Assembly (NCBI GenBank): GCA_035515235.1
Contig: DATJBS010000011.1
Coordinates: forward strand, 5,288 to 69,287
Direction of reading: 5' to 3'
Source: Chitinophagales bacterium
GTDB taxonomy: Bacteria; Bacteroidota; Bacteroidia; Chitinophagales; JADIYW01
Length of the DNA stretch: 64,000 nt
Part shown: piece by piece, positions 11,562 through 57,567 of the stretch
Layout: every line of letters starts with the position of its first letter
Position numbering within the stretch: the first letter of the stretch is position 1
Program-made: the position numbers and the translations under genes
The notes under the pieces: model-generated
What the model saw: only the letters and a program-made list of their open reading frames with translations
Told to the model about the DNA's origin: nothing
The model's database searches: none

Positions 11562-11689
11562 TTTCTAGAATAAATTACATAGCAATTATAATATGATAAG
11601 ATGATGATTTTTAAACATTTCCTGTCAGCAAAGAAAATGATATAAAATACAAAGCTTTATTTTAATCAAGTAGTCACTAATTTCATTTA

Positions 11690-11760
11690 GGTGCTGTTAT
11701 ACTTTCGTGCTTTCTGTCATGAATATGATTTGGTAAATCTATGCAATCATATTGTTAATC
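11690..11760 (-). repeat. attC-family element, degenerate
   Basis: The ORF stop codon lies inside GATTAAC. This is followed by a 9-bp inverted repeat (AATATGATT...AATCATATT), the family core GAAAGCACGAAAG, and a second GTATAACAGCAC box. No clear GTT end was found. Confidence 0.35.
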
Positions 11761-12915
11761 CCACTTATAATAAATACAGTCAAGTAAAGCAACTCTATAA
11801 TTGTAAATTTTAAGTTCCGATTTTTGCATTGATTTATTTTGTTTACTCCAATCAGAATTAATGAATGGCTCAACAATTAAATCCCAATAAGTTTCATAGT
11901 TGACTTTACTTTTATTGATTTGCAACTCTTTGCACATTGCATTTTGATTCTTTCCATTGAAGTTAATAAAATAATCCGGTCTCCACAAACAAAGCATTCT
12001 TGATGCACAAGCAAGTTCTTTTTGCGATGATACTTTTTGAAACTCTTTAATAAAATTTAGATAATCGGATTTAGTCACTTCACCTTTCTTTGGAATTTTA
12101 CTTAGTGCGTTTGTAATTATTTCTGGCTTTTCAATCACTGAGTTTTTGAAATACCCTCTTGCATTAGTAGTTCCAAAGCAACCAATGTCAACACCATGTT
12201 CTTCCTTTTCACCACTTCCAAAACCTGCAATTGATTTACGAGTTTGCAAATTTATTTTATGAAATTGTTCTTGCTTACTAAACTCATTCTTTACCCAATC
12301 TAAAAAACGAATTGATCCTTTATAATCTTCTTGCTTTAATTCGGTTAAATATTCTTTCCATGTTTTTTCATATACAGGTTGTCTAATTCCTTTTAAAGGA
12401 AGTTTAGGAACATAAGTTTTTACTTTCTTTTTTCGCTTTGTGTATTCTTTGACATATTCTTTGGTCAAGATTTTTCCTTTACTCCATTGTTCGTCTATAA
12501 AGAGCACGATGCTTTTATAAAAATCACTTTCTGATTTGTCTGCCGAAGAAATTAAAACAGATGCCTCGGTATTATTTGTGAAAGCCGAAGAAGTATAATT
12601 TGCACTTCCAATTAATAACTCCCAATCAGTTGCACTATTGGTAAACAAATAAAGTTTAGGATGATAAGTTCCTTTTGTTTGGTCTATAAATCTAACTCCT
12701 TGATGATTGTAAAACTTCTCAAGAAAACCTAGATGTGTTCCGAAAAATTGTAAGCCGACACATATCTTTATAATTTTAGCTTTCTTAATCACCAACAAAT
12801 TACTCATCTCGAAATTAAAGTCAGCCCAAGCAACTGTCCATAGGTATTGATCGTAGTTTAACATTAGTCGCTTAAATTCTTTTGTTAATTCAGTTGTCGT
12901 ACCGATTAGTTTCAT
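11755..12915 (-). CDS. PLD-superfamily (single HKD motif) nuclease-like protein with uncharacterised C-terminal domain
   Basis: 386 aa. GTYHPKLYLF...LLIGSANYTSSAF matches the HxK...GSxN pattern of Nuc/BfiI-type PLD nucleases. The C-terminal ~230 aa were not recognised. Confidence 0.6.
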   Translation of the reverse strand: MKLIGTTTELTKEFKRLMLNYDQYLWTVAWADFNFEMSNLLVIKKAKIIKICVGLQFFGTHLGFLEKFYNHQGVRFIDQTKGTYHPKLYLFTNSATDWELLIGSANYTSSAFTNNTEASVLISSADKSESDFYKSIVLFIDEQWSKGKILTKEYVKEYTKRKKKVKTYVPKLPLKGIRQPVYEKTWKEYLTELKQEDYKGSIRFLDWVKNEFSKQEQFHKINLQTRKSIAGFGSGEKEEHGVDIGCFGTTNARGYFKNSVIEKPEIITNALSKIPKKGEVTKSDYLNFIKEFQKVSSQKELACASRMLCLWRPDYFINFNGKNQNAMCKELQINKSKVNYETYWDLIVEPFINSDWSKQNKSMQKSELKIYNYRVALLDCIYYKWD

Positions 12916-13331: not shown

Positions 13332-14003
13332 TTAAATTATTGATTTTATATTGATCTCTATAATTGTCATACGACCATCATCGTAAGTATTAATAATATT
13401 CTTTGATTGTGCTAAGAGACTTCCATGAATTATATTCTTTGGGTCTAGGTAAATTACATAACCATTGTCTACTTTCTCCATATGTTCTCTTTTTGTAATT
13501 CCAGCAAGTAAATAATTGTTTAATAAAAGGTCTTTATTTTTATTATTAATATCTCTATTATATTGGGTTAATATATTATTTCCATTGCCGTCTTGAATAC
13601 CTTGTATAACTTTTGTTTCAATATAGTTTACTATGAAATCTAATTCTCCGATAAATTGATTTAAAAAGAACCCTATAGTAGTTGTCTCTTTTAATGTATC
13701 ATAATATCGGATTCTATAAGCATCACCAAGAATTTTCAGAAACCGTTCGTCTATTTTTTTTGTGATGTCAAAGTAGCAATCAGATAGTAATTCTTGTATT
13801 TTATCCAATTTATCTAAATGAACTCCCATTTCCTTTTTCTCTTTTCCATGAAATGCTAAGATTGCTTTTAAATATTTTTCTACAGCAGTACTTGCAAGAG
13901 TCACGCCTTGTATGATGTATCCACCATGAATCAAATATCTAGCAGAAATGTAATCATTATAACCTAATGAGATTAATGAAACAGCTTTAGAGTTATTATC
14001 CAT
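13332..14003 (-). CDS. HEPN domain protein with extra C-terminal domain
   Basis: 223 aa. YNDYISARYL...ASTAVEKYLKAIL...GVHLDKL...AYRIRYYD follows the classical HEPN helix pattern (QAxEKxLKA, HxL, RYP-like). No MNT partner is adjacent. Confidence 0.65.
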   Translation of the reverse strand: MDNNSKAVSLISLGYNDYISARYLIHGGYIIQGVTLASTAVEKYLKAILAFHGKEKKEMGVHLDKLDKIQELLSDCYFDITKKIDERFLKILGDAYRIRYYDTLKETTTIGFFLNQFIGELDFIVNYIETKVIQGIQDGNGNNILTQYNRDINNKNKDLLLNNYLLAGITKREHMEKVDNGYVIYLDPKNIIHGSLLAQSKNIINTYDDGRMTIIEINIKSII

Positions 14004-14032
14004 ATTGTGAAAATTATAGAAGCATAAAAAAA

Positions 14033-14165
14033 CTTGTCAACGTTTTGGCACTTGGCATGAAGCGGATTTGAAATCACAAAACTGTCTGCCTACACTAACT
14101 TGATACGAAGCACAAAGCTTCATTTGACCACAGAACCGCCAATTTCTTGTAGGAGCTGTTATAGC
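14033..14165 (-). repeat. attC-like imperfect palindrome
   Basis: Minus-strand reading gives GCTATAAC 6 nt after the stop, then ...AAATTGGCGGTT ... AATCCGC..GCCAAAAC-GTTGACAAG. The arms are cttgtcaacgttttggcac.. (14033-) and ..aaccgccaatttcttgtaggagctgttatagc (-14165). Confidence 0.7.
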
Positions 14166-14171
14166 TTGTGT

Positions 14172-14945
14172 TTATTCTAGTTCATGCATTAAAAGGTCGT
14201 CAGGATATACTGGTGTCAATTCATAATCGTCGGAATCTTTATTTATGTACATTGCTTTTTTAGTAGCCATGCCCCAGTCTCCGAGAAACTTCTTTCTATA
14301 TCTAGCAAGGGTAAAGAAAACTGTAACATTTTCAGACCAGTCTTTAATAAAAGAAGAGTCCTTATATGTATTAATTCTCAAAGCAATATTTGCATCAACA
14401 TCTAACTCGCTACCAGTTTGTAAGCCTTTTACATCTCCTTCAATTACCAATGAAGCAGACTGTGAGTTTGATTGCATTATTAATGCTCGTTTAGCAACTG
14501 TCACAGATGTTACTATAAAGCAGTTTTTCCAGTCTATTGAGTTTTTGTGTGGTTCCAATTGTTGTTCTAAATTGGATGTGTCAACAATAGAATTGACTTT
14601 ACAATCAACAGCAGCAAAATATGTTGCTCCTTCTTTATTAAAATTTATTTCGAGTTTTCCTTTTCCTACGGTTGCTGCATTAGCGTCCGCAGTAAAGCTG
14701 ACTCCAACAGATCCTTTACTTGCATATAAATACGGATCTGGATCTGAGTCATCTTGTTCTTGAAAGGTAACTCCCAAGCTTGAAAGTTTAGAAATAGGGT
14801 CAAATGATCCAATAGGTCTAGGCTTGACAAAACCTTTTCCAAAAGTAATGACGTCACCTACACTAACTGGTGTTCCTGGTAGAAATACTGGGATTTTATC
14901 AAGCTCCTTGATAATCTCTTTGCAATAGTCTTTAACTAAACTCAT
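14172..14945 (-). CDS. gasdermin-like (candidate pore-forming) protein
   Basis: 257 aa, no signal peptide, beta-rich. It has an N-terminal helix followed by PVFLPGTPVSVGDV. The segments CFIVTSVTVAKRALIMQSNSQSASLVIEGDV and NVTVFFTLARYRKKF resemble gasdermin N-domain strands as I recall them. The C-terminal tail of ~35 aa is acidic. This is pattern recognition only. Confidence 0.4.
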   Translation of the reverse strand: MSLVKDYCKEIIKELDKIPVFLPGTPVSVGDVITFGKGFVKPRPIGSFDPISKLSSLGVTFQEQDDSDPDPYLYASKGSVGVSFTADANAATVGKGKLEINFNKEGATYFAAVDCKVNSIVDTSNLEQQLEPHKNSIDWKNCFIVTSVTVAKRALIMQSNSQSASLVIEGDVKGLQTGSELDVDANIALRINTYKDSSFIKDWSENVTVFFTLARYRKKFLGDWGMATKKAMYINKDSDDYELTPVYPDDLLMHELE

Positions 14946-14956
14946 GATTTTAAATT

Positions 14957-15616
14957 TTAATTGTTATTAATTGATTGATTATTTTCTATTTGATTTTCTT
15001 TCGCAATTTCTTCAATAATGTCACCAATCACATACGGTGGTTCGCGATATGCTATTTTAAGATTTGAATCGCTGTGAGGATGGTTCAAACCAATTCTGTG
15101 AGATATTTCATGTGCTATTGTATTTGAAATACTGGGTGGATTTCTATTTTTTAATGGCACTCTATTGAACAATATAGGTCCATACTCGGTACCATCATAA
15201 GCTATATTACCATAAATTAAGTTAAGCCATAGCCCTTTTACTCCACCATAAGTATCAGCAGAAGTTCCATTAATATTTTCTCGCATTTTTTGAACAACAT
15301 CTTTCGCAACAACCCCTTCCCAAGCTTTAGTATGTTCACCCGTTCCTAAACTGTCCTTTATGTAATTCGTCAATAATGTCTCAAATTTTTCAGAATAAAC
15401 TGATTTTATTGTCAGATTTACTGCAAGTTTGAAATCATCAATCTTTTTACAAGGCATTTTTGACTCAGCGAAAGTAATTTCCTTGCCATCTAATTTATAG
15501 GTGATTTTTGGAACTTCACATAATGAAGTACATGATGAAATTGTTATCAGTACTCCTATACCTGCAATTATCGTAATTTTTTTTTCCTTCATTTTCATTG
15601 TTGTCTTTTTTAACAT
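14957..15616 (-). CDS. zinc metallopeptidase (metzincin-type HExxHxxGxxH), predicted lipoprotein
   Basis: 219 aa. HEISHRIGLNHPH motif. The N-terminus KKITIIAGIGVLITISSC looks like a lipoprotein signal. An 11-nt gap separates it from the downstream ORF. Confidence 0.6.
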   Translation of the reverse strand: MLKKTTMKMKEKKITIIAGIGVLITISSCTSLCEVPKITYKLDGKEITFAESKMPCKKIDDFKLAVNLTIKSVYSEKFETLLTNYIKDSLGTGEHTKAWEGVVAKDVVQKMRENINGTSADTYGGVKGLWLNLIYGNIAYDGTEYGPILFNRVPLKNRNPPSISNTIAHEISHRIGLNHPHSDSNLKIAYREPPYVIGDIIEEIAKENQIENNQSINNN

Positions 15617-15617
15617 A

Positions 15618-15754
15618 GGCTATAACGTTTTGCAGATTTGCGATGGGCGGGCTTTTTACCACAAATGTTGATGCGGAGCACAAAACTTTCGGCTACCACT
15701 ACACTGTCTGCGGAGAACGAAACCCCGCCTATTGCAAATGTGCTGTTAGCAGTA
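15618..15754 (-). repeat. attC-like imperfect palindrome
   Basis: Arms are ggctataacgttttgcagatttgcgatgggcggg (15618-) and ccccgcctattgcaaatgtgctgttagcag (-15752). The inner stems ATTTGCRATRGGCGGG pair 14/16 with a bulge next to the boxes. The AAC box lies 7 nt after the stop, and the GTT box lies 1 nt before the next ATG. Confidence 0.75.
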
Positions 15755-15760
15755 GGCATT

Positions 15761-16750
15761 CTATTTCTTGTCATCAAAGTAATTCTGTTTCCCAATCTTT
15801 CCTTTGACATAGTCGAGGTAGTTGTCGTCATTCTGTTTGTCGTTGTCAACTCTTGTCATTCCAACATTTAAATTTATTTGCTCACTTTCAAGGTCGTAAA
15901 TTACTTTGCTGATTGCTTGTTGTTTTAGATAGTACTTATATGAAATTTCTTCAACTTCTGCTAATGTAATCTCGGAAATAATAAATCTATGAATTACTCT
16001 ATTTCTTTCATCATAGAGAACATATAGTTCGTCAAATGTTGATTGGTCTATAATTCCTAAATCGAGTGCTTTTTTGTAAATATCTTTTTCTGATTTTTTC
16101 TTATCAGTTAGTCCTTGATAAATCCATTCGACTTCAATTTCACTATTGTTATTTGTTATTTGGTTTTTCAGAACGATACCAATTCTTAAAAGTGCATCAA
16201 TTTGACTTGCTAAAAGACAAGTAGCTTCAATGAAGGCTTTGTTTTCTATTGCTTTACTGAGAATTAAAGCAGTCGCACCAACTCCTTGCAAAAACATATC
16301 AAATCTATATGAGTTTATCACGTCAATACTTTTCCCATCTTCTATCGGTTTAAATTCTTTCAATATTGAATGAACGGTTTCCACTTTCTCGGATATTGTT
16401 CGACTGTCAAGGTCTTTGTCCGGATTGTTGGGATGTGTTAAAGTAAAAATCACTGATTTATCCCCTAATTGCTTTAACCAAGTTTTGGTCGTGAATTCCA
16501 TATCGCCACTATCAGGTAACTTATAAAAATCAAAGTCTCCAATTTTTTCAACTGTTAATGATTTGGTTAAGTTTTGAAAGTTCTTTTTCTTTTCTTCGGT
16601 GTCCAATGAATTTATTGATAGTTGGAATGCATCTGATTTCCAAATTTCATATTCCTGAAAAGTATGTACTTTTCCATTCTTAATTGAATGTTTCCAAGTC
16701 GTCGGAACTTTAATTTCGAAAGTTCCTTTTTCGTCTATAAATCGTTTCAT
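15761..16750 (-). CDS. two-domain protein with C-terminal HEPN-like RNxxxH motif
   Basis: 329 aa. The C-terminal helical region contains YDERNRVIHRFI (Rx4H). The N-terminal ~150 aa were not recognised. Confidence 0.45.
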   Translation of the reverse strand: MKRFIDEKGTFEIKVPTTWKHSIKNGKVHTFQEYEIWKSDAFQLSINSLDTEEKKKNFQNLTKSLTVEKIGDFDFYKLPDSGDMEFTTKTWLKQLGDKSVIFTLTHPNNPDKDLDSRTISEKVETVHSILKEFKPIEDGKSIDVINSYRFDMFLQGVGATALILSKAIENKAFIEATCLLASQIDALLRIGIVLKNQITNNNSEIEVEWIYQGLTDKKKSEKDIYKKALDLGIIDQSTFDELYVLYDERNRVIHRFIISEITLAEVEEISYKYYLKQQAISKVIYDLESEQINLNVGMTRVDNDKQNDDNYLDYVKGKIGKQNYFDDKK

Positions 16751-19860: not shown

Positions 19861-19911
19861 GTTTTTTTGAGGGTATTTTCCTTTGTTTTCTTTTTATTTG
19901 AATATTATTTG

Positions 19912-19936
19912 TATATTTGCAAGGGAAATTTCCCTT
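19912..19936 (+). promoter_or_regulatory. Bacteroidota-type -7 box plus perfect 16-bp palindromic operator upstream of the HTH-ImmA gene
   Basis: TATATTTG (TAnnTTTG) lies at 19912..19919. It is directly followed by AAGGGAAATTTCCCTT at 19921..19936, 12 nt before the ATG at 19949. Confidence 0.55.
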
Positions 19937-19948
19937 AATTTTGATTAT

Positions 19949-21130
19949 ATGAATATTGAGAGTTTATTAAATTCCATATTTTCAGATACAAATTATAATA
20001 TTAAAAATGTTTTTGAACAGAAGCTTAACGAATACAATCTAAGTAGAACTAAGGCTTTAAAACTATTGAATATTGATAAAGATGTATTTGATGAAATTTT
20101 AAATGGAACAGCAAAACAACCAAATTTAATACATATTGTAAAGATTGCAGAGTTTTTAGGAATAGAAGTCAATAGCTTTATAAATATTGTATTAAAAAAT
20201 CAAAGTGCTGAGAATATTTCAGCAATTGATAGTGCTAGAAAAGCTACGTTTCTTGTTAAAAACTTTGATGTAAAAGCGCTTACAAAACTTGGCTTTTTTG
20301 ACGCAGATTATACGACTGAAGAACTTGTAAATAAGGTTTTAGATTATTTTGGTTATACTTCAATTAATGATTTTGAAGAACAATTAGAAGAACCTTTGTA
20401 TAGTAGGGTTAAAAAGAATCATTCAGATAAAATGAAAGATTTTTGGATAAAATCCGCTTATCAAACTTTTAAGGTTATTAATAATCCGAATGATTATAAT
20501 CGAGAAAGATTAAAAGACTTAATTGTGAAAATTAAGCCTTATAGTCAAGATGTCGGTAATGGTTTGTTGACTGTCTGTAGAGCATTATATAATATTGGAG
20601 TTACTGTAATCTTTCAAAATTATTTGACAACTACTCAAGTTCGAGGTGCGACCTTTATAATAAACGACAAACCATGTATTGTAATTACTGATTTCAATAA
20701 AGTTTATCCAACACTTTGGTTTACATTATTGCATGAACTTAATCACGTTTTGTTTGATTATGATACAATTGAAAAAAGTAGTTACCACTTGTCAGATGAT
20801 AATGACTTATTCTTGATTGAAGATCAAGCAAATTCATTTGCTAGAAATTTCTTTCTATCTGAAGAAAAGTTCAAGTACATTAAGAAATACATTAATAATC
20901 CCTATTTAGTGTCAAAGTTTGCAAATGAGATTGAAGTTCATCCTTCAATTGTTTATTCTTTTTTTACATGGTATCAGAAAGAATTATACAATAAGAATTA
21001 TCATGCTGCTTTCAGAGAATATTATCCGGATTACAGTAATGCAATTTCCAAATTAAATCCAATAACTTGGAATGAAGCAAGCATTAAGGAAGCAAGTGAA
21101 AAAATTAAATCAGTTTTAGAATTAAATTAA
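19949..21130 (+). CDS. HTH (XRE-type) + ImmA/IrrE-family metallopeptidase fusion
   Basis: N-terminal HTH (LSRTKALKLLNIDKDVFDEILNG...IVKIAEFLGIEVNSFI) and the HExxH motif LLHELNHVLFD. The start is set at the internal ATG at 19949 (MNIESLL). Confidence 0.75.
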   Translation: MNIESLLNSIFSDTNYNIKNVFEQKLNEYNLSRTKALKLLNIDKDVFDEILNGTAKQPNLIHIVKIAEFLGIEVNSFINIVLKNQSAENISAIDSARKATFLVKNFDVKALTKLGFFDADYTTEELVNKVLDYFGYTSINDFEEQLEEPLYSRVKKNHSDKMKDFWIKSAYQTFKVINNPNDYNRERLKDLIVKIKPYSQDVGNGLLTVCRALYNIGVTVIFQNYLTTTQVRGATFIINDKPCIVITDFNKVYPTLWFTLLHELNHVLFDYDTIEKSSYHLSDDNDLFLIEDQANSFARNFFLSEEKFKYIKKYINNPYLVSKFANEIEVHPSIVYSFFTWYQKELYNKNYHAAFREYYPDYSNAISKLNPITWNEASIKEASEKIKSVLELN

Positions 21131-21136
21131 GATATT

Positions 21137-21673
21137 ATGTCAAATAAAGAAATAAAAAAACAAGAAGGGCTTTCTCAAGCCGATATAGAAAGATTAGAAC
21201 TTTTACAAAAAGCTAATGAAAAAATAGGAAAGCAATTGACTATAAATTCTGAATCTGGAAATCTTGAAGAATTTGATGAATTAAGACAATTAGTTGGGAA
21301 AGAATTTGAAAATCCTGAAGAAAAATACAACTTGTATTATGTGGGAATAAGAAGATTACTAATGGGTTATTTACCAAAAGGCAAGGATAATAAGCAATTA
21401 AGAGAAATTATTTATGATGAAAAAAATGTTTTTTTGAATTTAGGTAAGAAGAAATCGGATAATAACGGGATACGTAAATCTGATGGAAGAATGACTTATC
21501 AACCAGTAATGAATGAAATATTAGATATAATCATCAAGTGGGTAGGAGAGTCTCAAAATCCTTTCGATTTATATAGAGATTTCTATGAGTTGAATGAAAA
21601 ACATGGATACGGTCATGAGGTTTATGATGATAGTACACAAAGTGTAGCGAAAGCAATGTTAGCTTTAAGCTGA
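21137..21673 (+). CDS. hypothetical protein, co-oriented partner of the HTH-ImmA gene
   Basis: 178-aa ORF 6 nt downstream of the preceding stop. No motif recognised. Confidence 0.5.
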   Translation: MSNKEIKKQEGLSQADIERLELLQKANEKIGKQLTINSESGNLEEFDELRQLVGKEFENPEEKYNLYYVGIRRLLMGYLPKGKDNKQLREIIYDEKNVFLNLGKKKSDNNGIRKSDGRMTYQPVMNEILDIIIKWVGESQNPFDLYRDFYELNEKHGYGHEVYDDSTQSVAKAMLALS

Positions 21674-34469: not shown

Positions 34470-34479
34470 TTTTTAAATT

Positions 34480-34617
34480 CATGGTAACGGTTCTCAGCTA
34501 CACGCAGGCAGGGATTTTTAGCACTGAACTTCCTACGAAGAACTGAACTTTAAATTTACCACTTTCCTTTTCTACGAAGCACGAAACCCCTGCTTGCGTA
34601 TAGGTGATGTTACCGGC
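34480..34617 (-). repeat. attC-like imperfect palindrome
   Basis: Arms are ggtaac-ggttctcagc-tacacgcaggcaggg (34483-) and cccctgcttgcgtata-ggtgat-gttacc (-34614). The inner stem pairs 13/15 with an asymmetric bulge beside the boxes. The core gaagcacgaaac is present. Confidence 0.75.
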
Positions 34618-34627
34618 TGGCGTTCTA

Positions 34628-35335
34628 TCATTCCACATATTTCAAAAGTTCTCTTACTAGTCGAAACACAGTTGTTGATGATTCTTCTCTAGCTGGATTT
34701 GTATGGTCAAAATGATTGTAATTTCTCTCTGCTCTATCTATTGCAAGTTCAGCTCTTTTTCTGCTCGTTTTGTCATCTATTCCGTCAAGTAATTCAAAAA
34801 AATCTTCTTCTATTAATTTTGTCCCATTGCCGTCATAGGTTACTTTGAATGGTTTAAGGTGTTCATTGATTTTATCATTGTAATTATCTCTATGCATTCC
34901 ACCGCCTTGATGGTCATTAAAGTGTAGTATTAGCCAATATTCAAACGATTGATTTGAATAAGCTACTCCAAAGTTGTTGGCTAAGGCTATTTGAATTGCA
35001 GAGTTGAAATCATTGTCGTTAAAATCGTCTTTGTCAAACACACACCAAACTTGGTCGTAGTTCCCTTGTTGGGCTAACACGAGGGCTCTATTTACTAACG
35101 AAACTGTATTATATCCTTCACCAACTGATTTGACTTTTGCGGAAGTAATTCTGAATTGATTAAAATAAGAGGGTTCGGTATTTTCTCCTTCACAAACAAT
35201 AAGAATAGAGGGTTTTTCTGTTAACTCTGCAACAGGTCTTTCTAGGCTCGGTTCTTTTCTTCGTTGAGCCCTTAACTGTTCAAGGTGCTTTTGCTTAGCT
35301 GCTTTTTGTTCAGCTTTTTTGTCCTTCATTTTCAT
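34628..35335 (-). CDS. RloB-like (TOPRIM-type) protein
   Basis: 235 aa. SILIVCEGENTEPSYFNQF is the RloB hallmark. It overlaps the upstream ATPase gene. Confidence 0.75.
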   Translation of the reverse strand: MKMKDKKAEQKAAKQKHLEQLRAQRRKEPSLERPVAELTEKPSILIVCEGENTEPSYFNQFRITSAKVKSVGEGYNTVSLVNRALVLAQQGNYDQVWCVFDKDDFNDNDFNSAIQIALANNFGVAYSNQSFEYWLILHFNDHQGGGMHRDNYNDKINEHLKPFKVTYDGNGTKLIEEDFFELLDGIDDKTSRKRAELAIDRAERNYNHFDHTNPAREESSTTVFRLVRELLKYVE

Positions 35336-36644
35336 TTTCTGTCAATAAAAATTGTAGGTTATCAAAAAAGCCAAGAAATGGAACTGCACCATATTTTCCT
35401 CTGATATAGTTTTCTTCAAAAGGCTCTGTTTTTCTTACTTCATCTGATTTAAAGTCAGCTAAGGAATAAAGTTTCGCTTCTCCATATTTATTTTTGTTTG
35501 TGAACCAAATTTGATCTCTTCTGAAAAGTCCTGAACTTAATAAGTTTGTGTCGTGAGTATTGAAAATCAACTGTGCATTCTTCTTATTAAACTCTTTAGA
35601 GTTAAAAAGCGAAACGATTTTACAAACCAAATTTGGATGAATTTTAGAGTCTAACTCATCTACAACTAATGTATATCCATTTTCAATCACATCAAGAATA
35701 GGCCCCGTTAAAGCAAAGAATTTTCTTGTTCCTGATGATTCATCTTCGTCCAAAGAAAAACTAATGTTTCCTACCGCTTTTAAGTCTTCATTATATTTTT
35801 TATGCTTGGTCAATACATCAGAAACATACTCTTGCTTTTCTTCACGAACTTCTTTAATAATTTTATCTTTAAGTTCTTTGGGCATCCCTTTTGGAAGACT
35901 ATTGATGTCAAGTTTTTGTAATTCGATATCTTGAATTCCTAAATCAGCAGCTTTCAATAAAGCTAGAATTTTGATTTTGTGTTCAGGGTCTTCTGTTCTA
36001 CTCATAGTAAAGCCTTGGTAACCTGATTCGTTTAACCCTGATAAAGTTTTTAGTCTTTTAAACCAATCTAAAACAATGATTGCCGTCTTTTCATTGAATT
36101 GAGCGGCTACAGAAATTAATAACGCATTATCTCGAACAAGTCCTTCCTTAACAACCATATTGCCTTTGGTGAAACTTCGTTCGTGAGTATTGAAGGTGCT
36201 ACCTTCTCTGTAAAAGAGTTCAACTTCTTTTGTTTTTGGTTTGTGATAAAGCCACTCAGACACAATTCTCTCAGTTGTTGCTTCAAAGCCATAACGATAA
36301 AGCACATTTTTGTAAATGAAAATGATTTCAAATTCAGATGGTTCGTTTTCTGTCTGTGTGCTTAGTTTAAATGGCTCAACCTCAATAGTCTCACCTTTTT
36401 GGCTTTCCTTAGAACTATTGATTACGAAATATCGCATAAATGCAAATGCATCAAGCAACTTGCTTTTGCCACTCGCATTTGCACCATAGATAACTGCACT
36501 TTTGAGAAGTCTCAGTCCAAAGTTTTCATTGATTACGATATTTTCGTGCTCTCTGGTGTCTTTATCATAGTTAGAAGCAATAAGGCTCAAAGTCGCTTTG
36601 TCCTTAAATGTCCTAAAGTTTTTAATTGAAAATTGCAGAAGCAT
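35310..36644 (-). CDS. AAA/ABC-type ATPase (AAA_21-like; RloA/AbiLi-like)
   Basis: 444 aa. Walker A is IYGANASGKSKLLDAF and Walker B is LVVDELDSKIHP. Confidence 0.75.
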   Translation of the reverse strand: MLLQFSIKNFRTFKDKATLSLIASNYDKDTREHENIVINENFGLRLLKSAVIYGANASGKSKLLDAFAFMRYFVINSSKESQKGETIEVEPFKLSTQTENEPSEFEIIFIYKNVLYRYGFEATTERIVSEWLYHKPKTKEVELFYREGSTFNTHERSFTKGNMVVKEGLVRDNALLISVAAQFNEKTAIIVLDWFKRLKTLSGLNESGYQGFTMSRTEDPEHKIKILALLKAADLGIQDIELQKLDINSLPKGMPKELKDKIIKEVREEKQEYVSDVLTKHKKYNEDLKAVGNISFSLDEDESSGTRKFFALTGPILDVIENGYTLVVDELDSKIHPNLVCKIVSLFNSKEFNKKNAQLIFNTHDTNLLSSGLFRRDQIWFTNKNKYGEAKLYSLADFKSDEVRKTEPFEENYIRGKYGAVPFLGFFDNLQFLLTENENEGQKS

Positions 36645-53007: not shown

Positions 53008-56000
53008 ATGATTATGAGGAAATACATACTTTTACTATTACTTTTTATTACACCTATAAGTGTATTCTCACAATTTAATCCAATTGCACACGAGTTAAAT
53101 AAAGAACCCTATTTTTTTAGTAGTTGGAATTCTGATGCTCCAGCAGGTACATTTCCTGAGAGCATGTATTTTCTTCAATATCAAGGAGACGATGAGCCAG
53201 ATAAAAATACGATAGTTGGTCAATTATGGCAATGTGCTTATAATAGTGACAGTAGATCCAGGTATGTAGGATTAGGTCTAAATGGAATAGGTATTGTAAA
53301 TTCAGGAAGTGTTCAAGATACAGAAGATAGATGTGGGAATGAATCTTTCAGAGGAGCAAAAGTTGGTGTTGTAGTTTTAGCTTTAAATACTTCTAATATG
53401 GAAGAAATTGAGCTTTCATGGAAAATTAGATTAATAGAGCAGGGCAACGGAAATCCTTTGCCAAGAGCATACAGAATTCAAGCACAATATAGAAGTGACA
53501 CTTCTGAATCATGGAGCGATTTTCCTTCATCAATTTCATATTCCACACAAGGAAAAATTACAGGAGATGTTCAAAATGTAAAGGTATTTCTGCCCAAGCA
53601 ATTAGAGAATAAAGAATATGTACAAGTAAGATGGAAATATTATCAAGATGAAGCTAATCAGGGAGGAACTCGACCATTTATAGCATTAGATGACATTAAA
53701 GTGGTGGGTATAAATTCTATTACACCTAATCTCCCTTTTGTATTTATTGAAAATGAAAATTTAGAAACATTTGGATGTATTGAAGGGGATTTTTCAGAAG
53801 TAGATTCGATAGTTATCTCAGCGGCTTTTTTAAGAGATAATTTAGAAATAGCAATTGGAGGAAATTTTTACATATCGCTAAGTAAAATAGATGGATATAC
53901 TCAGAAATTGAATTTGATTAATAAAGATGGAGTAGTCTCAGAATCAACAATTTATATTAAAAAGAAGTGCAATGATATTTCTAGAGAAATAGAAAAACTT
54001 TATTTTCGTTCAAAATTACTAAATAAAAATATTTCTTTAATAGGTGAAGGTTATTATAAGCTTTTTATAAATGAAGTTGTAGCCTCTAATTTTATATCAT
54101 ATTACGATCCTTACACAAAAGATTATCCAGATTGGATAGAAATTTATAATCCTAATGGTGATAATATCCAATTAGGAAATTACTTTTTAACAGATGATAT
54201 CAATGATTTAACTAAGTTTAAAATTGGAGTTAGATCAATAAATATAATTTCAAACAAAGGTTTTGTTGTTTATTCTGCCAATAATGTTATTGGATACTCA
54301 GGAAGAGATTTAAACTTTTCATTATCTAAATATGGAGGAAGTGTTTTATTAGTTGGAAAAAATGGAAAAACAATAATTGATAGTTTGACATATGGTAATC
54401 TAGAAGCAGATATTTCATATGGTAGAGAATTGGACGGCAGTAATACATTCGTGAATTTTAAAACAACAACGCCAGGAGAATCTAATTCAAAGTCAATACC
54501 GTATGGTGAAAAATCTGAGAATCCAGTTTTTTCAGTAATTGGAGGAAAATATGATCAACCATTTGCATTAGGAATTAATGCATCTTCTCCCAACGCTAAA
54601 ATATATTATACAATAGATGGTTCTGACCCTAATCCTGATAATTTAGGAGGATTTGTTTATGAATATAAAATAGATTATCAATATCGAGGAGCAGGATTTA
54701 TAGGTGATTCCTATTTTCGACCTTATCGTTCTTATTTGTTCTTAGAATCTATTGATTTAGGAAGATACATGGATAAGCTTTTTTGGATAAGTGATATTAC
54801 AGCCTCGTATCAGACTTCTATTATAAGACAAAAGAGGCCACCAGCTGTTACAGTCAGAGCATTAGTAATAGAAGAAGGAAAGGAGCCAAGTGATATAATA
54901 TCTAATACTTATTTCTTTTCAAATGATGATCCCGTTAAAGATGAATTACCTATTATATCTTTGACTTTGAATGAAAATCAGCTAAAAGGTTTTTATGAAG
55001 GCATTGGTGTGCCAGGTGTGGATTATGAAACTTGGAGATATACCTCACCTATATTAACAAATATGTTTTCTCCTGCTAATTATAGACGTTCAGGAAGACC
55101 TGCTGAAATTCCATCTAATATCGAAGTCTTTGAAAATGGCAAACAAGTATTAAATCAATCAGTAGGATTAAGAATTCATGGCGGAGGAACAAGGAGTGCC
55201 CCTCATAAAAGTTTCCGTATATATGCTAGAAATTTTTACGGAAAGGATGTAATGACGTATCCATTTTTTAAAAATCTTCCTTATGAAGATTTTCAAAGAT
55301 TGATTTTACGTAATTCAGGAAATGATTTTAGTGGCACCTTTTTTAAAGATGCTTTTATTCAAAGATTAATGAAGTTCAATAACGTAGATTATCAGGAATA
55401 TACGCCTTATAATATTTATATTAATGGAGAATATTGGGGGCTATTAAATGCAAGAGAAAGAATTGATATTAAATACTTTCAAAGAAAATATGGTTTTAAT
55501 GAATCAGATATTGATTTTTTAGAAAATAATAAAAGAGTAATAGAAGGTGATACATTACATTATGCAAGTTTTCTAAGAAATCTTTCAAATATTGATTTGA
55601 CTTCTGAAGAATCCTATAATTATGTCGATACGATAATAGATATTGATAATTATATTGACTATCAATCATCTAAAATATATGTAGGAGTTATAGATTGGCC
55701 TCATAATAATGTTCGTTATTGGAGATATAAAATCAATCAATACAAACCCAAGTCTCCTTACGGATTAGACGGAAGATGGAGATGGGTGAATATTGACAAT
55801 GATAGCGGATTAAACAAAGGGGAAGAAGATTTGAATTCTTTTGACTGGGCTTTGTCTCCTACAGGAAACGATAGAGGTGAAAATGCAACATTCTTATTTA
55901 GATCACTTATTGAAAATCCAAAATTTAAAATTCAATTTCTTACTAGATTTTCAGATTTACTCAATACTGCATTTCTTCCAAAACGTGTTATAGGAGAAAT

Positions 56001-57567
56001 TTCTTACTATAAGAATTTATTAGAGCATGATATGATCAACTATCTCAATAGATGGAATATCAATAGTCGTGACATCAATATATGGTATAATAAGGTAAAA
56101 GTATTAGAAGATTTTGCAACTGTAAGACCTAACAATTGTATAAATCACATGAGAAAAACATTCAATCTAGGTGAAACAGCAGAAGTGACTTTGGATGTAG
56201 ATGATATCAACAAAGGCCATATTAAAATAAATACTATAGAAATCAACAGAAATACTCCTGGTGTGGATACCATTAATGTTTATCAATGGAAAGGAATTTA
56301 TTTTAAAAATTTACCTATTTCTTTTGTTCCAATACCACAAGATGGTTACAAATTTTCTCGTTGGGAAACCACAGACAGTACATCTTATATTGATACGCTC
56401 AAATTTGATTTAAAGAAAAATCTTTTTGTAAAAGCATATTTTGAAATTGACGACAATTACATTTACAATCCTGTAGCAGCTAAAATTGATGATTGTCCTT
56501 ATGAGTTTTCTGAATGGGCTAGTCAGCAAACAAAAGGTGCTAAGCCGGAGCATATGCAGTTTTATTATACGAGATATCCTGATTCTAAATCTAATGGTCC
56601 ATTAGAAGGAACTTTAGAAGATATTGAATATGATTATGATTCTAAAACAAGAATTAGTGGTTTAGGTAGTTTGGGAATTTCATTAATCAATACAGCGGGT
56701 GCCAACGATAATTATTACCAAACGAGACTTGGAGCTGTCGCAGTTGCAGTAAGTACTAAAGATATTAGTGGAGCAGAAGTGTCTTTCACATTAGGGACTA
56801 TTCATCCACAGTCAAAAAAGTATAGTATTAGATTACAATACAGATTAAGTGATAAAGGAGAAGTCTCTGACTTTTATGATAATAATAATCAATTAATAGA
56901 ATACAAAGGGAGCTATGATGCAGAGCATGAACAAAGATTTAAAGTAGACTTTCCTAAAAATTTATTAGATAAAAAGTATGTTCAGTTAATATGGAGATAT
57001 TACTATAATGGAGAGCAAGTGGACATGGGCTCGAATGCTAGAGACGAATTGAGAATTGATGATATTATCATTCAACAAAAAGATATTGTAGATAATCAGT
57101 CGAAAGGAGATTATAATAATATTTTAGTAGCAAATCCTAATAGTCAATCTTTTCAGTGGTATAAGTGTGTCAATGATAATTTGGTGATTTTAGAAAATGA
57201 GACTAAGCAACAACTAAATATTAGTCAACCGGGCGAATATGCAATTGCTGTAGATTATGGAAATTGTAAACATATTTCTGATTGTTCTTATTTTTTTGTT
57301 AAAGAGTTGAAGCATTTTGCTCCAAGTATTTATAGTAGTGTTTTACCAAATCCTAGCAATGGTAATTTTGACTTGACTTTTGATGAAAGCTTGACTGATG
57401 TTAGAATTGTAGTATTGGATGCCCTCGGAAAAGTATATGAAACCAAAGCATTTAAAGAAGTTAAGAATGTTCGCTTTGATGCTACCAAATGGTCTAAAGG
57501 AGTTTATATTTTGAATATATCTACTTCAGATGGTAGAAAAGACAGTCGAAAAATAGTGATTCAGTAA
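53008..57567 (+). CDS. CotH-family protein with lamin-tail-like domain and T9SS C-terminal sorting domain
   Basis: 1519 aa. LILRNSGNDFSGTFFKDAFIQRLM and GEYWGLLNARERID form the CotH core. The C-terminus is VLPNPSNGNFDLTF...GVYILNI. Confidence 0.75.
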   Translation: MIMRKYILLLLLFITPISVFSQFNPIAHELNKEPYFFSSWNSDAPAGTFPESMYFLQYQGDDEPDKNTIVGQLWQCAYNSDSRSRYVGLGLNGIGIVNSGSVQDTEDRCGNESFRGAKVGVVVLALNTSNMEEIELSWKIRLIEQGNGNPLPRAYRIQAQYRSDTSESWSDFPSSISYSTQGKITGDVQNVKVFLPKQLENKEYVQVRWKYYQDEANQGGTRPFIALDDIKVVGINSITPNLPFVFIENENLETFGCIEGDFSEVDSIVISAAFLRDNLEIAIGGNFYISLSKIDGYTQKLNLINKDGVVSESTIYIKKKCNDISREIEKLYFRSKLLNKNISLIGEGYYKLFINEVVASNFISYYDPYTKDYPDWIEIYNPNGDNIQLGNYFLTDDINDLTKFKIGVRSINIISNKGFVVYSANNVIGYSGRDLNFSLSKYGGSVLLVGKNGKTIIDSLTYGNLEADISYGRELDGSNTFVNFKTTTPGESNSKSIPYGEKSENPVFSVIGGKYDQPFALGINASSPNAKIYYTIDGSDPNPDNLGGFVYEYKIDYQYRGAGFIGDSYFRPYRSYLFLESIDLGRYMDKLFWISDITASYQTSIIRQKRPPAVTVRALVIEEGKEPSDIISNTYFFSNDDPVKDELPIISLTLNENQLKGFYEGIGVPGVDYETWRYTSPILTNMFSPANYRRSGRPAEIPSNIEVFENGKQVLNQSVGLRIHGGGTRSAPHKSFRIYARNFYGKDVMTYPFFKNLPYEDFQRLILRNSGNDFSGTFFKDAFIQRLMKFNNVDYQEYTPYNIYINGEYWGLLNARERIDIKYFQRKYGFNESDIDFLENNKRVIEGDTLHYASFLRNLSNIDLTSEESYNYVDTIIDIDNYIDYQSSKIYVGVIDWPHNNVRYWRYKINQYKPKSPYGLDGRWRWVNIDNDSGLNKGEEDLNSFDWALSPTGNDRGENATFLFRSLIENPKFKIQFLTRFSDLLNTAFLPKRVIGEISYYKNLLEHDMINYLNRWNINSRDINIWYNKVKVLEDFATVRPNNCINHMRKTFNLGETAEVTLDVDDINKGHIKINTIEINRNTPGVDTINVYQWKGIYFKNLPISFVPIPQDGYKFSRWETTDSTSYIDTLKFDLKKNLFVKAYFEIDDNYIYNPVAAKIDDCPYEFSEWASQQTKGAKPEHMQFYYTRYPDSKSNGPLEGTLEDIEYDYDSKTRISGLGSLGISLINTAGANDNYYQTRLGAVAVAVSTKDISGAEVSFTLGTIHPQSKKYSIRLQYRLSDKGEVSDFYDNNNQLIEYKGSYDAEHEQRFKVDFPKNLLDKKYVQLIWRYYYNGEQVDMGSNARDELRIDDIIIQQKDIVDNQSKGDYNNILVANPNSQSFQWYKCVNDNLVILENETKQQLNISQPGEYAIAVDYGNCKHISDCSYFFVKELKHFAPSIYSSVLPNPSNGNFDLTFDESLTDVRIVVLDALGKVYETKAFKEVKNVRFDATKWSKGVYILNISTSDGRKDSRKIVIQ

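Follow-up and report, generated by a model that had tools for sequence, protein, structure and literature searches.

What do the two neighbouring genes at positions 14172-15616 of a Chitinophagales contig encode, and could the product of one activate the product of the other? The question arises from a 64,000-nucleotide (nt) stretch of contig DATJBS010000011.1, hereafter the window, in which an earlier note, written from the sequence alone, had proposed a gasdermin-like protein of 257 amino acids (aa) encoded beside a 219-aa lipoprotein peptidase. Our analysis indicates that the 257-aa protein is very probably a divergent bacterial gasdermin (bGSDM), and that the zinc peptidase family to which its neighbour belongs is probably a genuine functional partner of the gasdermins of this clade. 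The two open reading frames (ORFs) are on the same strand and 11 nt apart; their coordinates and lengths are exactly those reported earlier, and the sequence strings quoted from the region (HEISHRIGLNHPH, KKITIIAGIGVLITISSC, PVFLPGTPVSVGDV, CFIVTSVTVAKRALIMQSNSQSASLVIEGDV and NVTVFFTLARYRKKF) were all found. The layout is as follows, with loci of relatives numbered from L001:

14957..15616, minus strand: peptidase gene (219 aa, predicted lipoprotein precursor), GenBank HUH73020.1, 'hypothetical protein'
14946..14956, minus strand: intergenic spacer of 11 nt, operon-like; the same 11-nt spacing occurs in L035, L006, L024 and L025
14172..14945, minus strand: probable gasdermin gene (257 aa), GenBank HUH73019.1, 'hypothetical protein'

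Both ORFs are real genes, because homologues are numerous: in a database of 5.8 billion proteins the 257-aa protein returned 39 at E<=1e-43 and the 219-aa protein 21 at E<=4e-30.

To characterize the 257-aa protein, which has no signal peptide, we predicted its structure with AlphaFold2 (AF2) from an alignment of the window protein and 34 of its 39 homologues (A1). The model reached a mean predicted local distance difference test score (pLDDT) of 87.2 and a predicted template modelling score (pTM) of 0.84. In a Foldseek search against the PDB, ranks 1-13 were all gasdermins (E 2e-5 to 2e-2), with a Foldseek probability of 0.96-1.00 for the top ten and of at most 0.07 for any match outside this family. 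Among them were GSDME (9H5M, E 2e-5), the Vitiosangium bGSDM pore (9A84) and oligomer (8SL0) and Runella bGSDM (7N52), followed by Vitiosangium 7N51, a Trichoplax GSDM, Neurospora RCD-1 and mouse GSDMD. The structural comparison that had been proposed for this protein thus yielded gasdermins as the sole significant matches.

Sequence profiles lead to the same family. An exhaustive search with the A1 profile retrieved 1,178 cluster representatives at E<=1e-3, of which 359 reached E<=1e-10. A 95-sequence alignment of members found in this way (A3) matched the crystal structure of Bradyrhizobium bGSDM (7N50, chain 7N50_A) at E 2.9e-7, collinear over residues 25-210, and A1 itself aligned with the same residues at E 1.4e-4. 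A further alignment (A7) was restricted to distant members in order to exclude circularity; it still matched 7N50_A at E 1.4e-5 and was homologous to A1 over its full length (hhalign, 251 columns, E 2.7e-43). The search for remote homology therefore reaches a solved bacterial gasdermin (E 1e-5 to 3e-7). The PADLOC bGSDM model individually matched 20 of the 95 family members. The segment CFIVTSVTVAKRAL..., which the earlier note had singled out by eye as gasdermin-like, aligned to FFVVTKVWRARGIRISV of 7N50 and to LYVITQVIKSNEFTV of Vitiosangium bGSDM, so that the visual reading agrees with both the fold comparison and the profiles. Two other matches were set aside: Pfam PcRGLX_2nd (E 0.023) is noise, and an A1 match in the PDB to a leucine-rich-repeat protein covers one short segment, PxGxFxxxxxL, and is a repeat artefact.

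The clade of the window gasdermin is missed by current annotation and by defence-finder models, as the GenBank labels of both genes illustrate. Because the clade profile retrieves 1,178 cluster representatives, part of the gasdermin diversity of Bacteroidota has probably been missed.

The C-terminal end of the protein falls into two predicted parts:

14226..14291, minus strand: predicted flexible linker, aa 219-240, KFLGDWGMATKKAMYINKDSDD; low pLDDT, length varies among homologues
14175..14225, minus strand: predicted C-terminal peptide, aa 241-257, YELTPVYPDDLLMHELE; conserved motif and modelled strand

Model confidence drops in the linker (mean pLDDT 51 at aa 221-230, below or about 50 at aa 222-226) and recovers in the strand YELTPV that follows it (aa 241-246), which has a pLDDT of 92 and is confidently docked in the model. 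The homologue alignment shows a conserved Y-x-L-x-x-V-x-P-x-x-L-L motif in the tail. The linker is presumed to be the region of protease cleavage, and by analogy with the C-terminal peptides of bGSDMs (bioRxiv 10.1101/2021.06.07.447441) the peptide at aa 241-257 may be autoinhibitory, holding the core at aa 1-218 inactive. In this predicted layout the protein resembles the Runella zeae, Bradyrhizobium and Vitiosangium bGSDMs, N-domain-like proteins of about 250 aa that end in a short C-terminal peptide and have no large inhibitory domain.

We then turned to the 219-aa protein, which had been described as a metzincin-type zinc peptidase carrying a lipoprotein signal. Two of its segments are central here:

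15530..15616, minus strand: signal peptide and lipobox, aa 1-29, with a K-rich n-region, ITIIAGIGVLITI and I-S-S-C29
15080..15112, minus strand: zinc-binding and catalytic motif HEISHRIGLNH, aa 169-179, read from sequence

The lipoprotein signal is real and conserved. A hydrophobic core of 13 residues lies between the K-rich n-region and the lipobox; in the 21 homologues S28, C29, C33 and C56 are nearly invariant, and the lipobox is recognized by a strict pattern in 16 of them and by a relaxed pattern in three more. From these features the peptidase is predicted to be an exported lipoprotein facing the periplasm, and C33 and C56 fit a disulfide. Assignment to the metzincins stood only in part. 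The HExxHxxGxxH motif is present, and H169, E170, H173 and H179 are invariant in both subfamilies of zincins, with G176 nearly so. However, a Met-turn is missing: the window protein has no Met between the motif and its C-terminus, no conserved Met occurs there in alignments A4 or A5, and the region has a conserved (E)PPYxIGxIxE helix instead. Pfam Reprolysin_4, Reprolysin_3, Reprolysin_5 and Peptidase_M10 remained below their gathering scores (E 0.006-0.05) and covered the motif region only, while NCBIfam metzin_BF0631 scored 12 bits against a cut-off of 208. An AF2 model built from A5 (pLDDT 86.7) is a compact alpha/beta zincin whose best fold match is the M35 aspzincin 1G12 (E 9e-3, template modelling (TM) score 0.36-0.44), followed by YbeY, M1 catalytic domains and minigluzincins; against viral structures nothing was significant, with weak SprT/IrrE-like similarities. 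We therefore regard the protein as a zincin-fold metallopeptidase of an unnamed family, whose metzincin status is not established. With the M35 aspzincin, the minigluzincins selecase and abylysin, and SprT/IrrE-like proteins it shares the compact alpha/beta fold and the HExxH helix, although these matches are weak (E >= 9e-3, TM <= 0.44) and its HExxHxxxxxH ligand motif is that of metzincins without the Met-turn.

Do such peptidases accompany gasdermins elsewhere? We assembled about 25 distinct loci from genome, metagenome and exact-protein look-ups, a sample biased to close relatives since the finder uses conserved peptide patterns. The neighbours of the gasdermin genes were as follows, with identities given relative to the window gasdermin:

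Window, L015 and L035 (~94-100% identity): lipoprotein-type small zincin directly upstream
L006 (73%): cytosolic small zincin directly upstream
L001 and L008 (53-55%): cytosolic small zincin directly upstream
L004 (~50%): cytosolic small zincin directly upstream
L024 and L025 (45-46%): small zincin directly downstream
L031 (82%): cytosolic 616-aa Peptidase_C1, 24 nt downstream
Locus of protein P0008 (67%): Peptidase_S8
L013, L014 (Tenacibaculum) and L027 (41-43%): TPR-S protein and Peptidase_C14
L012 (42%): TIR_2 protein
L010 and L020 (41-42%): EAD11 proteins
L018 (47%): 362-aa protein with HEMGH and no Pfam match

A small HExxHxxxxxH zincin thus adjoins the gasdermin gene in nine of the ~25 loci, always on the same strand and with gaps of 11-69 nt; it lies upstream in the window, L015, L035, L006, L001, L008 and L004, and downstream in L024 and L025. 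Most of these gasdermin-linked relatives are cytosolic, unlike the lipoprotein form of the window: they measure 165-176 aa and have no hydrophobic N-terminus. By profile comparison the lipoprotein and the cytosolic forms are nevertheless one zincin family (hhalign probability 97.3, E 1.8e-11, 144 columns). The suggestion that the two genes might be conserved neighbours therefore holds in a broader and a narrower sense: gasdermin relatives adjoin proteases, zincin homologues among them, but the lipoprotein zincin accompanies the gasdermin only in the narrow clade of the window. Protease partners are also swapped among close relatives with an almost unchanged linker (C1 in L031, a subtilase at P0008). 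Overall, the neighbourhoods of the relatives are those of an immune effector with interchangeable activating proteases.

Some of these loci have further features. In the Crocinitomix locus (L001, 4422-6601) the gasdermin lies between two cytosolic zinc peptidases, the small zincin upstream and, downstream, a 259-aa metzincin of M10/reprolysin-like type whose Pfam score exceeds the gathering threshold. The papain-like C1 protease of L031 (2578-4428) is cytosolic and carries an extra C-terminal hydrolase-like region. A HisKA_3 histidine kinase with faint TPR matches and a GerE-type response regulator are encoded repeatedly next to gasdermin or zincin genes (L001, L008, L014/L027, L029 and L033) in Crocinitomix, Tenacibaculum and metagenome contigs, often accompanied by a Peptidase_C14 gene; L033 has the regulator and no recognisable kinase. 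This recurrence suggests transcriptional control of these loci.

The two genes of the window are bounded by copies of an attC-like element of ~150 nt, which is repeated at 15606-15764, 14022-14175 and 11562-11711 (nhmmer E 5e-25, 5e-37 and 7e-23). The nhmmer model was built from these three copies, so their matches hold by construction, whereas a fourth copy at 34475-34628 is independent of it (E 9e-5). The two copies that flank the pair are:

15606..15764, minus strand: upstream attC-like element, 3' end of the preceding cassette (nhmmer E 4.6e-25, model-building copy)
14022..14175, minus strand: attC-like element closing the cassette, with G^TT at 14041/14040 (nhmmer E 4.7e-37, model-building copy)

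Near the 5' end of every copy stands ...TAACAGC..., and both flanking copies finish in ...CAAAACGTT. The 5' boundary of the two-gene cassette, ...CAAAACG^TT, falls at 15626/15625, 8 nt ahead of the peptidase ATG. The cassette described in the earlier note is thus essentially right, as the repeats do bound the pair, but its GTT box lies at 15626-15624 and not at 15618. Of the four window copies tested, two gave a hairpin fold of attC type, long and imperfect with paired TAAC/GTTA ends: the upstream copy (z -1.8 against shuffled sequence) and that at 34.5 kb (z -2.9). The cassette-closing copy is not among them; the fold predicted for it (14036-14168) is no more stable than that of shuffled sequence (z -0.06 to -0.43), and its hairpin looks degenerate.

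In L015 the 94%-identical pair has the same element on either side, the upstream one directly adjoining it, and in L035 the element is found 3' of the pair. It also lies 3' of the gasdermin-then-zincin pair of L025, an otherwise unrelated contig (E 8e-22), so that both genes occur inside one attC-like-bounded unit in two gene orders, one in the window, L015 and L035 and the other in L025. Because the near-identical pairs of the window, L015 and L035 have three different sets of neighbours, the two genes move as one unit. No integrase or tyrosine recombinase was detected by Pfam in any of the 34 window ORFs scanned, which include every ORF of at least 280 aa except 53008-57567. The array is therefore at best an attC-like site cluster without integrase within 64 kb; an IntI could lie outside the window or among the unscanned ORFs. 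The region is most likely a mobile, attC-bounded cassette of ~1.6 kb and integron type within a defence-type island.

How might the two proteins work together? As a whole, the locus is best explained, if still tentatively, as a two-gene cell-death module consisting of a gasdermin and a zincin activator, with separation of compartments as its safety catch. The gasdermin would be a cytosolic protein whose pore-forming core (aa 1-218) is kept inactive by the peptide at aa 241-257, attached through the flexible linker. Cutting of the linker by the zincin would release the C-terminal peptide, the freed core would oligomerise and perforate the inner membrane, and the cell would die before the phage completes its cycle. 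We infer each of these elements, namely cleavage, inhibition by the peptide, pore formation, the role in defence and the trigger. Such standard gasdermin logic fits the cytosolic pairs of L001, L004, L006 and L008 without difficulty. For the window, the preferred reading is that the inner membrane between protease and substrate would act as the safety catch, and cleavage would occur only when the compartments mix through a breach of the envelope or when export of the precursor fails. That the exported zincin of the window activates the gasdermin beside it is a possibility that we regard with some doubt. A more novel version, in which the pair is a sensor of compartment breach, with the gasdermin in the cytoplasm and the zincin held by its lipid anchor at the periplasmic face of the inner membrane, seems improbable. 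Its triggers would include membrane lesions made by phages, pore-forming toxins, or blocked Sec or lipoprotein export with the precursor retained in the cytoplasm, and any meeting of zincin and gasdermin would turn a local lesion into all-or-none gasdermin lysis. If true, this would be a bacterial gasdermin triggered by lost membrane integrity and not by a cytosolic sensor protease, and a metalloprotease would be established as a gasdermin activator.

A number of observations weigh against the module as set out above, and some of them touch the gasdermin itself. TM-scores to solved gasdermins are low (0.29-0.42) and root-mean-square deviations high, so that the fold assignment rests on Foldseek probability and sequence profiles and not on tight superposition. 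The scores are slightly better against pore forms, and with its very long strands (142-159 and 197-218) the model may be closer to an extended conformation. Searched directly with Pfam, PADLOC, NCBIfam and phmmer against the PDB, the 257-aa protein gave no gasdermin match, and no curated library matches it directly. The palmitoylation site at Cys3/Cys4 is absent, and none of the 95 family members has a Cys within its first six residues; conservation of Cys8 is limited to close relatives, 26 of 35 of which have it. This N-terminal site is common in bGSDMs and not universal, the Gillisia bGSDM being without it (bioRxiv 10.1101/2021.06.07.447441). Low TM-scores, the lack of direct matches and the missing cysteines would all suit a beta-rich protein of distantly related or convergent fold with another role. 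We nevertheless hold it highly improbable that the 257-aa protein is no functional gasdermin, since every significant fold match is a gasdermin, the chain of profiles runs collinearly to 7N50 for ~185 residues, and the family's neighbourhoods are of immune-effector type (C14 with TPR-S, S8, C1, TIR and EAD11).

The remaining difficulties concern the link between the two proteins. The inner membrane is predicted to lie between protease and substrate, in keeping with the different compartments pointed out by the earlier note. All three lipoprotein-type zincins examined at 54-61% identity stand alone in ordinary neighbourhoods with no gasdermin nearby, two cytosolic zincin homologues are also without one, and no neighbouring protease is in view at about ten gasdermin loci. 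The linker RYRKKFLGDWG is conserved in close relatives whether they adjoin a zincin, a C1 or S8 protease or no protease at all, and since it is the same whatever protease is adjacent, the cleavage site need not be dictated by the neighbour, although conservation at 67-94% identity may simply reflect recency. Together with the confinement of the lipoprotein pairing to one clade, whose zincins are 87-92% identical, most of these points favour the main rival, a real gasdermin whose activator is something other than the exported zincin. The trigger would then act in trans, through a caspase-like or other protease encoded elsewhere or another signal, and the lipoprotein zincin, having replaced a homologous cytosolic one, would do a separate periplasmic job or serve as a second effector after pores open. 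We judge this rather unlikely: the slot is held by the same rare zincin family in at least five other lineages, the 11-nt operon spacing is kept, and the genes stay together in one attC-bounded unit in three genomic contexts (window, L015 and L035). A further rival would place activation in the cytoplasm, by an unexported precursor or a product of an internal start, and leave the signal peptide without regulatory meaning for the pair. The cytosolic relatives of 165-176 aa are indeed about as long as the window protein minus some 50 N-terminal residues, and Met54 precedes the region of homology, but Met54 is not conserved (I or F in many homologues), an exported form is likely to be functional given how nearly invariant the lipobox Cys, C33 and C56 are, and an active precursor beside its substrate would leave no safety catch against self-killing. 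This course seems to us very unlikely, and the module with compartment separation remains the preferred reading.

The two gasdermin-free cytosolic zincins occupy settings of their own. One, 57% identical to that of L001, lies between a beta-rich 804-aa protein of no recognized kind and an OmpA-domain protein, near a SIR2-NACHT gene (L036, 500-6531), and the other stands in a phage-like row of genes. When the neighbours of the cytosolic zincins in L036 and L038 were tested for gasdermins, no hidden Markov model (HMM) match was obtained. The zincin family may serve effectors other than gasdermins. Just upstream of one stand-alone lipoprotein zincin (L034, 2028-2789) is a 253-aa predicted lipoprotein that aligned with the gasdermin profile collinearly (GLGDV..., MYVSGIVYADKF...), though short of significance (hhalign E 0.019, probability 2.5%); if the likeness were true, it would be a secreted gasdermin-like partner.

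Mammalian gasdermins provide a parallel for a protease that arrives from another compartment, GSDMA being cut by streptococcal SpeB, GSDMD by neutrophil elastase and GSDMB/E by granzymes. There too, substrate and protease are normally apart and death follows once the protease reaches the cytosol, which is the logic proposed here for the exported zincin, but the mammalian enzymes are either foreign or stored in granules, and their genes do not lie next to that of the gasdermin. Among bacterial systems, 43 of 50 bGSDMs adjoin proteases, mostly C14 and CHAT, and subtilases fill this place for fungal gasdermins (Johnson et al., bioRxiv 10.1101/2021.06.07.447441 / Science 2022); metalloproteases are unmentioned in that founding paper. 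Like these systems, the window encodes its gasdermin beside a protease in surroundings resembling a defence island. Unlike them, its partner is a small zinc metallopeptidase instead of the usual C14 or CHAT protease, predicted to be an exported lipoprotein without sensor repeats, and the unit is carried on an attC-like cassette; the gasdermin itself, besides lacking the Cys3/4 site of characterised bGSDMs, is too divergent for the PADLOC model.

Lysobacter-type bGSDM systems use trypsin-like proteases and CARD-like domains, with no mention of a metalloprotease or zinc (Wein et al., PMC10312443). The remark that the window peptidase is not of the type found in known bacterial gasdermin operons is thus in line with the partners described so far, namely C14, CHAT and trypsin-like proteases. 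In common with the Lysobacter type, the window clade has a gasdermin effector with putative dedicated proteases, and a single gasdermin may have several of them next to it, as with the two zinc peptidases of L001; the serine proteases and ATPase/CARD relay of the Lysobacter type, however, have no counterpart beside the window pair. The fungal HET-Q1/HET-Q2 gasdermin-subtilisin pair (PMC8851545) likewise places a gasdermin beside a protease, and a 67%-identical relative of the window gasdermin adjoins a Peptidase_S8 gene, yet the fungal pair is eukaryotic, acts in allorecognition and relies on a serine protease. Integron cassettes (BRiCs) carry phage-defence systems, including two-ORF cassettes (bioRxiv 10.1101/2024.07.02.601719; PMC12614218), and gasdermin cassettes are unmentioned in both studies. 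The window unit resembles BRiCs in being compact, probably promoterless, bounded by attC-like sites and, as they sometimes are, composed of two ORFs; it differs in its Bacteroidota host, in one poorly folding flanking site and in the lack of an integrase among the scanned ORFs. A literature search for gasdermins together with metalloprotease, metallopeptidase, zincin or integron, of incomplete coverage and hence weak as evidence of absence, returned nothing relevant, and we found no description of a zinc-protease partner or of an exported topology for bacterial gasdermin systems.

What appears to be new here is a divergent and very probably bona fide bGSDM clade, its likely zinc-peptidase partner, the unexpected, predicted exported form of that partner and mobility that is most likely cassette-borne. 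If confirmed, a zinc metallopeptidase would form a new class of activator beside the C14, CHAT and trypsin-like proteases of bacteria and the subtilases of fungi, and the gasdermin 'slot' would accept almost any protease, given that relatives of 67-82% identity adjoin zincin, papain-like or subtilase genes. The topology of the exported protease could reveal a different trigger logic, and a gasdermin death module carried between attC-type sites would be a unit shuffled by horizontal transfer.

The window belongs to a 70.9-kb contig of a Chitinophagales metagenome-assembled genome, and its 64 kb are chromosomal in character, with genes for transketolase, phosphoketolase, aldolase, pyruvate kinase and the like. 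Within them an island at ~10.5-21.7 kb contains a PLD-family nuclease, a HEPN protein, a 2H-phosphoesterase-like protein, an M78/antitoxin-like protein and an ECF sigma factor whose gene is overlapped by the ORF after it, of 245 aa and without family match. Its base composition is barely AT-richer than that of the flanks and is uninformative. Two further units end in the attC-like element. The PLD-family nuclease (11755-12915; NgoFVII-like, with a weak DrmC-like match) is followed by the copy at 11562-11711 and may be another cassette. A defence-type pair, made up of an AAA_21 ATPase (35310-36644) and an RloB-like protein (34628-35335), lies far away from the main island with the copy at 34475-34628 directly after it; the whole (34475-36644) looks like a second two-gene cassette. 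The gasdermin pair itself is flanked on one side by a 223-aa HEPN-domain protein (13332-14003) and on the other by a 329-aa protein without family match (15761-16750), which has a faint similarity to PADLOC PDC-M01B (E 0.18). At the edge of the island (19883-21673), a 415-aa M78/IrrE-like peptidase resembling repressors or antitoxins of the spr1629 family is followed by a 178-aa ORF of no recognized family, and this couple may be a regulator or a toxin-antitoxin-like pair.

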